Made by a program: the position numbers and the translations under genes | In this document: positions 56,323-57,251 of the stretch, one piece after another | Numbering within the stretch: position 1 is the first letter of the stretch | Layout of the letters: each line of letters begins with the position of its first letter | Assembly (NCBI GenBank): GCA_964392445.1 | Contig: CAYMPD010000002.1 | Span: 37,037 to 101,036, forward strand | DNA: 64,000 nucleotides | Direction of reading: 5' to 3' | From: an uncultured archaeon | GTDB lineage: Archaea > Aenigmatarchaeota > Aenigmatarchaeia > CG10238-14 | Notes under the pieces: model-generated | What the model saw: only the letters and a program-made list of their open reading frames with translations | Database searches by the model: none | What the model was told of the DNA's origin: nothing

Positions 56323-56392
56323 GTATTTACCCCTTCTTGAAAAGTTGCAAAATTAGATATTAATAAAGAAATTAAAACAACTTTTAAGCTTT

Positions 56393-56467
56393 CCTAACCT
56401 TCTCCCTAAATACTTCCCTCATACATTCAGAACAAAGATTCCCACCATAAGGTCTTTCAGGTCTTCT
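56393..56467 (-). repeat. 75-bp perfect duplication of the rpl34e 3' end
   Basis: Identical to 56991-57065; 25 codons [25 protein letters not shown], then KA* (stop 56384-56386). Confidence 0.95.
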
Positions 56468-56516
56468 AAGAATTAATAGTCATATATTTAAATCATTCAG
56501 ATAATAATTAACTTAA

Positions 56517-56723
56517 GTGAGAAAAATGTCGAACATTACACTAGAAACAATTCATCAAGATTTAAACGAATTAAAAAAAGAGTTTTATGAACTTAAAATA
56601 GTCCTAGTTCAAGAACCAGAATTATCTGAAGATACGGTAAGAAGAATAAATGAAGCTCGACAGAGAATGAAAACTGATTTTGTGAGTCATGAGGAAATGA
56701 TGAAGGAGTTCGTTAATGGATGA
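56517..56723 (+). CDS. Putative antitoxin (RelB-like partner)
   Basis: Small acidic helical ORF, ATGA-coupled to relE; C-terminal ..RI.EAR..MK..FVSHEEM. Confidence 0.75.
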   Translation: MRKMSNITLETIHQDLNELKKEFYELKIVLVQEPELSEDTVRRINEARQRMKTDFVSHEEMMKEFVNG

Positions 56724-56980
56724 AATTCAAGGTCATCTGGGATAAAAAAGCTAGAGAATTCTTAAAGAAACAAGATAAACAAATTTCTTCGCGGGTAGTT
56801 AAAAAAGTAGATAAAATAAGAAAGGACCCAATAAAATTCCTAGAACCTTTGGTATCTATTAAGAGTTACAAGCTAAGAGTTGGTAATTATAGAGTTATCA
56901 TAGACGTAGATTGGGAAAAGAGAATCCTTTTTGTTGTATTAATAGACCATCGGAAAAGAATATACAAGAGATCAAGATAA
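56720..56980 (+). CDS. relE: RelE/ParE-family toxin
   Basis: FKVIW..KA..FLKK.DK, YKLRVGNYRVI, V.LIDHRKRIYK. Confidence 0.93.
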   Translation: MKFKVIWDKKAREFLKKQDKQISSRVVKKVDKIRKDPIKFLEPLVSIKSYKLRVGNYRVIIDVDWEKRILFVVLIDHRKRIYKRSR

Positions 56981-56981
56981 A

Positions 56982-57251
56982 TTAACTTCCCCTAACCTTC
57001 TCCCTAAATACTTCCCTCATACATTCAGAACAAAGATTCCCACCATAAGGTCTTTCAGGTCTTCTTTGGGATTTAGGTAATTTCTTTAACTCAGATGGTC
57101 TTTTCCTAGGAACACCTTGAAGGGGTTTACCACATCTTGCACACTTAGCTATACTCGGTTTTTTCTTCTTATAATGAGTAACAGTTCTTCCTCCTGGAAC
57201 CTTTTTCTGACTTCTCTTCAAACTTCTTGATCTTAATCTTCTCTTAACCAT
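56982..57251 (-). CDS. rpl34e: 50S ribosomal protein L34e
   Basis: PGG...[28 protein letters not shown]. Confidence 0.95.

Follow-up and report, generated by a model that had tools for sequence, protein, structure and literature searches.

The movement of chromosomal toxin-antitoxin modules without a transposase or integrase is a long-standing loose end, and the locus described here raises the question in a concrete form: how did a small antitoxin-toxin pair come to lie between two copies of the end of a ribosomal protein gene? The locus is the 3' end of rpl34e, the gene for ribosomal protein L34e, in an uncultured archaeon of the Aenigmatarchaeota (DPANN). It was found in a stretch of 64,000 nucleotides (nt) of contig CAYMPD010000002.1, which we call the window. 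The source genome (G000) has 1.2 Mb in 54 contigs, with 35% G+C and an estimated completeness of 94.9%. Coordinates given without a contig label refer to the window; G000 to G004 are species genomes, and numbers starting with L designate individual loci or contigs. The L34e locus is one instance of a genome-wide pattern of insertions that involves no recombinase, and at this place a type II toxin-antitoxin cassette probably entered the chromosome by a homology-anchored insertion at the end of rpl34e, displacing the resident gene end.

The duplicated rpl34e end and its cassette

The intact rpl34e gene (56982-57251, minus strand; 89 aa, Pfam Ribosomal_L34e, 1.2e-26) is the only full-length copy in G000 and its product ends in KVRGS*. 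Downstream of it, on the same strand, lies a stranded L34e 3' fragment (56384-56467) made of 25 identical codons, a diverged KA tail and a stop codon. This copy reads KVRKA*, has no start codon and is preceded by a stop five codons upstream. In a repeat search the two appear as a direct repeat of 84 nt (56384-56467 and 56982-57065) with 95% identity and a spacing of 598 nt. The inner 75 nt, corresponding to codons 63-87, are identical at 75 of 75 positions (56393-56467 and 56991-57065, the latter within the intact gene on the minus strand), and the difference is confined to the two final codons, which encode GS in the intact gene and KA in the stranded one, so that the tails diverge at 4 of 9 nt. 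An exact repeat of 75 nt is far beyond chance. Both the repeat and the cassette are unique within the 1.2-Mb genome, and the repeat is not a multicopy element. An earlier note on this DNA had described two identical 75-bp copies of the gene end bracketing an antitoxin-relE pair with no recombinase at hand, and on both points it was right: between the repeats there are only the two toxin-antitoxin open reading frames (ORFs) and no mobility gene, and no recombinase is encoded in the cassette or beside it.

The first ORF of the cassette encodes the antitoxin candidate (56526-56723, plus strand; 65 aa, with an alternative GTG start at 56517) and the second an 86-aa toxin of the RelE/ParE superfamily (56720-56980, plus strand). 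They are co-oriented and overlap in ATGA at 56720-56723, while the toxin gene and rpl34e are convergent, with their stop codons 1 nt apart. An AT-rich leader (56468-56525, plus strand) could be read from the sequence abutting the stranded copy, and it contains a TATA-like TTTAAAT and a ribosome-binding-like GTGAG, putative signals of the toxin-antitoxin operon. The toxin matches Pfam ParE_toxin (6.7e-10, 39.9 bits for a cut-off of 23), and in an alignment of 11 homologues the basic residues are invariant and the C-terminal Tyr is conserved. The antitoxin candidate belongs to no curated family, with only a sub-threshold Pfam match (DUF6875) and no NCBIfam match; metagenome contigs hold homologues of it, with 62% and 57% identity, in front of related toxin genes. 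In the predicted complex the C-terminal half of the antitoxin wraps the toxin. The three prediction runs share at least 90% of the contacts, the pLDDT of the partner is 80, and the interface score ipSAE reaches 0.86 versus 0.02 in the best control. In calibration, 58 of 80 solved complexes and 2 of 110 mismatched pairs came up to this mark; the pass may nevertheless be the model's memory of solved RelBE-like complexes and not new evidence. Sequence and predicted complex together support a type II toxin-antitoxin pair with a RelE/ParE-fold toxin, for which toxicity, neutralisation and post-segregational killing are the predicted functions. The arrangement is that of RelBE and ParDE modules, with the antitoxin gene first, an overlapping gene for a toxin of about 86 aa with the RelE/ParE fold and a similar predicted wrapping, but the antitoxin found here falls in no curated family and the pair is known from its genes and from prediction. 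As for the surroundings of related pairs, L067 (JGI Ga0310070_1060593) is a small toxin-antitoxin island in which a 62%-identical RelE pair has a MazE-PIN pair and the reverse transcriptase of a group II intron as neighbours, and a 67%-identical toxin adjoins GluRS on another contig.

A duplication of this kind might be created by the assembler, if strain variants, or a free circle and an empty site, were joined through a repeat longer than the k-mer. The metagenome-assembled genome (MAG) is of low depth, and the toxin/L34e side (56813-57286) is not reached by the independent Logan contigs, which have about 5x depth; for this reason the support for the toxin/L34e junction comes from the MAG assembly and from the like adjacency in a separate ENA contig. 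On that contig, which comes from another metagenome, the toxin (83% identical) and L34e (85% identical, likewise with a GS tail) abut in the same way. The junction between stub and cassette, however, is unique sequence, and it is present in the independent Logan contigs of a microbial-mat run, which span 56016-56812 (a 167-aa ORF described below, the stranded copy and most of the cassette) with zero differences and at the same depth as the flanks. Like structures with non-identical repeats are also found in G004 and in L069. An assembly artefact is an unlikely source of the duplication.

Gene-end brackets in the genome and in the genus

Comparison of the genome with itself revealed ten cassettes bracketed by 53-100-nt copies of the end of a neighbouring gene, L34e included. 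Both 3' and 5' gene ends are used, and two 5' cases duplicate the gene start together with its upstream region. At 3' ends, the gene of a TtuA-like thiolase carries a cassette of MNT and HepT genes (L021, contig C1 120900-124500, with 62-nt copies of the gene end at C1 122281-122341 and 123028-123089), a 309-aa gene and the aRF1 gene each carry an RHH and PIN pair, and Dph2 carries HEPN with wHTH-MNT. A Schlafen/AlbA_2 protein is encoded at the 3' end of a radical-SAM gene and an orphan of 141 aa at that of a prepilin peptidase gene; the 141-aa ORF of C21 has no Pfam and no NCBIfam family. The 5' ends are those of rtcA, with HEPN and wHTH-MNT as cargo, and of a glycosyltransferase gene, with a C39-peptidase pair, and one noncoding repeat brackets a Fic gene. 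Apart from the L34e and TtuA-like sites, these cassettes (L022, L023, L024, L025, L026, L028, L030 and L031) are located on contigs C2, C20, C21, C13, C4, C8, C3 and C8 of G000.

Counting repeats of at least 40 nt, 7 of the 17 RelE, PIN, HepT and HEPN toxin genes are bracketed versus 12 of 295 random segments (Fisher P = 1.3e-5), and 5 of these 12 control matches fall at three of the same cassette loci. RelE loci with the same layout are found in other genera of the order (L056, L053 and L046). The earlier note had likened the end of rpl34e to a tRNA att site. This view is not supported: at least nine other gene ends in G000 carry such insertions, the repeats of the ten loci have no 8-mer in common, and the cassette ends share no 10-mer motif. 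The longest exact inverted match at the cassette ends is only 5-9 nt and AT-rich, with no terminal inverted repeats, and no integrase, transposase or other recombinase is encoded inside any of the cassettes. Since so many gene ends are used with neither a shared core nor an end motif, the pattern speaks for recombination driven by homology and not for an att site.

Other repeats were seen in G000. At L027 (C14 24619-24684 and 29053-29118) a 66-nt repeat consisting of the start of an AbiEi-like gene and its upstream region brackets a 4.4-kb block with AbiEii-like and HEPN/MNT genes. There are also long direct repeats at C24 9088-10520, C12 6456-8672, C15 14246-16743 and C28 1-2888 (717 nt in tandem, 786 nt and 273 nt, all with 100% identity, and 203 nt with 98%), which are either true recent duplications or effects of the assembly.

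A comparison of 118 species genomes of the order showed a second partial copy of L34e only in G000 and in its congener G004. The cargo of G004, which lies behind L34e and shares its strand, is an AbrB-like gene plus a PIN gene (TIGR00305, 5e-22), bracketed by 82-nt repeats with 93% identity. On L069, a Logan contig with 90% nucleotide identity to G000, an 83-aa ORF (L069:896-1147, plus strand, no NCBIfam match) lies between L34e and an 89-nt stub with 93% identity. In three further lineages small ORFs are found at the L34e site with no duplication. Relatives with an empty site, which the earlier note had called for, do exist: G001-G003 and L070-L076 have no cassette and a single L34e end, followed by L14e as the next gene, at a distance within about 45 nt in L070-L076. 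The empty-site allele ending in KVRKA that the same note had predicted was not found, as this tail appears in no relative compared (16 close L34e proteins and the congeners). A 60-nt degenerate pattern of the L34e end gave 0 matches in metagenomes and, in genome contigs, matched only G001. In G001, the closest species-representative genome, the spacer between rpl34e and rpl14e (L002:1770-2210) is 440 nt long and holds no convincing ORF; it may be a decayed insert.

The minus-strand gene order secY, EMC3/DUF106, rpl34e, rpl14e, cbf5 is conserved. In the window, the EMC3/DUF106 membrane protein gene (57252-57734, minus strand) lies upstream of rpl34e, and rpl14e (55264-55767, minus strand), which comes directly after rpl34e where the site is empty, lies beyond the stranded copy. 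Between the stop codon of the stranded copy and the upstream region of L14e there is a 574-nt insert that includes the 167-aa ORF (55819-56322, minus strand), a gene of no detectable family for which both Pfam and NCBIfam were blank. This insert is present in no relative examined, no flanking repeat was seen around it, and a search of the Atlas with the 167-aa ORF returned nothing usable. An ORF of 165-172 aa that follows L34e in L070-L076 was considered as a homologue and rejected, as BLAST identified it as L14e. Further along, just after trm112 and cbf5, the window contains a second toxin-antitoxin-like pair, a 75-aa ORF and a 143-aa PIN protein (53476-54109, minus strand), with no bracketing repeat and with other genes at that place in relatives.

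Two alleles and a proposed way of entry

The differences between the copies show what the repeats are. Nine repeat pairs together have 30 synonymous versus 14 non-synonymous codon differences, where random substitution would give 9-12 synonymous ones, and none of 5000 simulations (0/5000) reached the observed 30. Both copies evolved as coding sequence, and therefore they are two alleles that were brought together and not a fresh duplication of the target followed by decay. Furthermore, in every readable 3' case the homology stops about -9 to +4 nt from the stop codon (the aRF1 copy, cut by the contig end, was left out of this reading). Homology that ends at the stop codon would be expected of a donor in which the cassette immediately follows the gene. 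With cuts staggered at random, the ends of homology should be scattered over the length of the repeat, which speaks against them.

According to the earlier note, the incoming DNA carries a replacement 3' end. This part of its account stands at the two sites where the direction of displacement is readable, the TtuA-like site and L34e of G004, L34e of G000 not being among them (see below); the Dph2, aRF1 and prepilin-peptidase sites are uninformative, and for the radical-SAM gene the congeners hold paralogues only. The TtuA-like gene of the congeners natively ends in LGGVLS, and this end with its flank is found in the stranded copy of G000, whose working gene ends in LGVY. At L34e of G004 all 8 discriminating sites of the stranded copy hold the base typical of the clade, and in comparisons with the clade this copy agrees in 66 of 80 cases versus 13 of 80 for the intact copy. 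Judging from these sequence comparisons, both sites have kept the resident allele as the stranded copy and received the working end from outside. Along the two copies of G004 the first 37 nt show 0 differences and the remaining 47 nt on the 3' side show 8, a distribution that fits a crossover within the repeat and a stub that is wholly resident.

The course of events that we infer for L34e would start with DNA of a related archaeon in which the cassette immediately followed an L34e 3' end. This DNA would recombine with the resident gene through the shared coding sequence, and an illegitimate joint would link its far end to the chromosome a few dozen bases before the resident stop codon. The gene would be kept intact with the cassette behind it, and one L34e end would be left stranded downstream as a dead 84-nt stub. 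The work would be done by the homologous recombination of the host, with no recombinase encoded by the element. The direct repeats would make the cassette deletable, but the toxin-antitoxin pair would kill or arrest the cells that lose it, and we propose that brackets survive mainly around addiction modules because their loss is penalised in this way.

An identical final structure would be produced if the cassette and one L34e end excised through the repeats as a 598-bp circle, as the earlier note had expected, and re-entered by a Campbell-type crossover in rpl34e. Perfect repeats of 75 nt would be good substrates for such a cycle, a second lineage has toxin and L34e joined in the same way, and a recent re-integration would account for the identity of 75/75 nt. 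A Campbell crossover, however, predicts donor bases in the 5' part of the stub, where G004 shows 0 of 37 nt different, so that the pattern in G004 fits better with one homologous end and one illegitimate joint than with a circle. A circle of 598 bp would also be without replication or transfer function, and no circle or empty-site junction was present among the assembled Logan contigs, which at that coverage says nothing either way. We regard the circle as a rather doubtful explanation. The exact identity over 75 nt would also be produced by a true long target-site duplication, in which breaks staggered by about 75 nt are filled in and both copies derive from the recipient, and this name has been used for the restriction-modification cases (PMC2853133). 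In such an event one would not expect 4 differences in the 9 nt of the tails next to 75 nt without any, and the intact tail is that of a genuine L34e of the clade, since L069 has it without this cassette. The synonymous bias in the older pairs, the clustering of the homology ends at stop codons and the foreign working end at the TtuA-like and G004 L34e sites are against it as well, and this origin of the repeats is highly improbable.

A dedicated system acting in trans, with a recombinase from a virus, from a plasmid or from the chromosome and the rpl34e 3' end as att, has to be weighed too. G000 encodes two tyrosine recombinases elsewhere, one XerA-like on C32 and a second, Xer-like one of 397 aa on C7 (L063:1099-2292), around whose gene no flanking repeats were detected. 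The second would be a candidate for such a role. Within the genus three or four cargos occupy this one site, only 7 nt separate the 5' limit of the G000 stub from that of the G004 stub, and elements are known that target the 3' end of a protein gene and supply a replacement end. Against this, the other targets in G000, nine at least, have no common core and the cassette ends no motif, no integrase is linked to a cassette, the repeats vary from 53 to 100 nt, and 5' as well as 3' gene ends are used. Site-specific integration is thus an unlikely origin.

Several observations weigh against a homology-anchored insertion. That three or four different cargos share one site, and that G000 has a second tyrosine recombinase, also fits a site-specific system, as said. 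The allele test is silent at this locus, where the copies are identical at all 75 positions. The tails here do not follow the direction seen at the two readable sites: the intact GS tail is the clade-typical one, found in both L069 copies and in the L34e beside the 83%-identical toxin, and the stranded KA tail, which would be the resident one, matches no relative. With an atypical tail on the stranded copy and a typical one on the intact copy, the direction at L34e of G000 is therefore not readable. The native downstream context is lost as well, with the 574-nt orphan-gene insert separating the stub from L14e. Distant RelE loci in metagenomes are bracketed in 5 of 53 cases versus 3 of 59 controls (80 loci were taken, of which 53 were scored), with no enrichment, and bracketing is not general for the RelE family. 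To our knowledge, how these archaea take up and recombine DNA has not been the subject of a study. Finally, the identity of the two copies does not require a recent arrival: given the 83%/85%-identical toxin/L34e counterpart elsewhere, the junction may be old. If it is, the identity of 75/75 nt needs gene conversion, which is hypothetical here. The identity could come from gene conversion that did not reach the edge of the homology, or from a recent re-recombination.

Related systems and what the pattern means

The closest parallel is found in restriction-modification gene complexes, described as insertions with a long target duplication (Nobusato et al. 2000, Gene 259:99; Furuta et al. 2010, PMC2853133). 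These are also addiction-type units flanked by direct repeats of more than 30 bp that are single-copy in genomes with an empty site, they have no integrase or transposase, and some of their repeats overlap the 3' end of a gene. The L34e repeat has the same properties, being exact over 75 nt and present in one copy in G001-G003 and L070-L076. The cargo is different, restriction-modification genes there and a toxin-antitoxin pair here, and the copies described here behave as two alleles with the homology ending at the stop codon, whereas the published screen, in which only bacterial cases and no archaeal case survived, left the mechanism open and framed it as target duplication (PMC2853133). As to the mechanism, homology-facilitated illegitimate recombination has been proposed to displace 3' ends in Rhs, contact-dependent inhibition (CDI) and type VI secretion system (T6SS) effector-immunity loci (Kirchberger et al. 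2017, PMC5361080, and work cited there). There, too, a conserved upstream coding region serves as anchor, a new gene end arrives with an immunity-type module, and the old end is orphaned downstream; the difference is that in those bacterial loci a variable toxin domain and its immunity gene are displaced, and here the redundant end of a housekeeping gene.

Chromosomal integron toxin-antitoxin cassettes are likewise small, bear their own promoter and lie between repeats, and a stabilising effect on their neighbourhood has been ascribed to them. They rely on attC and IntI, whereas the brackets of G000 consist of host gene ends and change from locus to locus, and a comparison for shared motifs found no common structured site at the brackets. 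The cassette does not resemble a transposon, insertion sequence or miniature inverted-repeat element either, having no terminal inverted repeats and a duplication of 75 nt, which is not short. Phage 21 and e14 in icd, and streptococcal integrative and conjugative elements in rplL and rpsI, are known to integrate at the 3' end of a protein gene and to bring a replacement for that end; cis-mobilisable elements have no integrase and are moved by a recombinase in trans. Like them, the cassette at L34e is associated with a gene kept intact, perhaps by a supplied end, and with direct repeats of the gene end, and ribosomal protein genes are a precedent as targets. Such elements have a dedicated tyrosine or serine recombinase and a defined core, whereas neither was found here and many unrelated gene ends are used. 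A literature search found no account of gene-end-bracketed toxin-antitoxin cassettes in archaea, which is not proof of their absence.

The pattern suggests that these addiction modules spread through host recombination at gene ends, with no integrase of their own. G000 offers some ten natural examples with readable junctions, and the genus shows the end of an essential gene hit repeatedly by different cargo. Tentatively, toxin-antitoxin and other small defence cassettes might have a life cycle free of recombinases, with a host gene end as homing arm, entry by host recombination and one illegitimate joint or by a small circle, and addiction as a guard against deletion; that this would be general in archaea and bacteria, with conserved essential genes as landing pads, is a possibility that we hold with some reserve. 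For annotation, short gene-end fragments next to toxin-antitoxin pairs are to be taken as fossils and not as genes. If the homology-anchored route is true, small defence cassettes would spread among related archaea by host recombination alone, displaced gene stubs would be a simple bioinformatic marker of such events, and conserved gene ends would be hot spots of insertion without being att sites.

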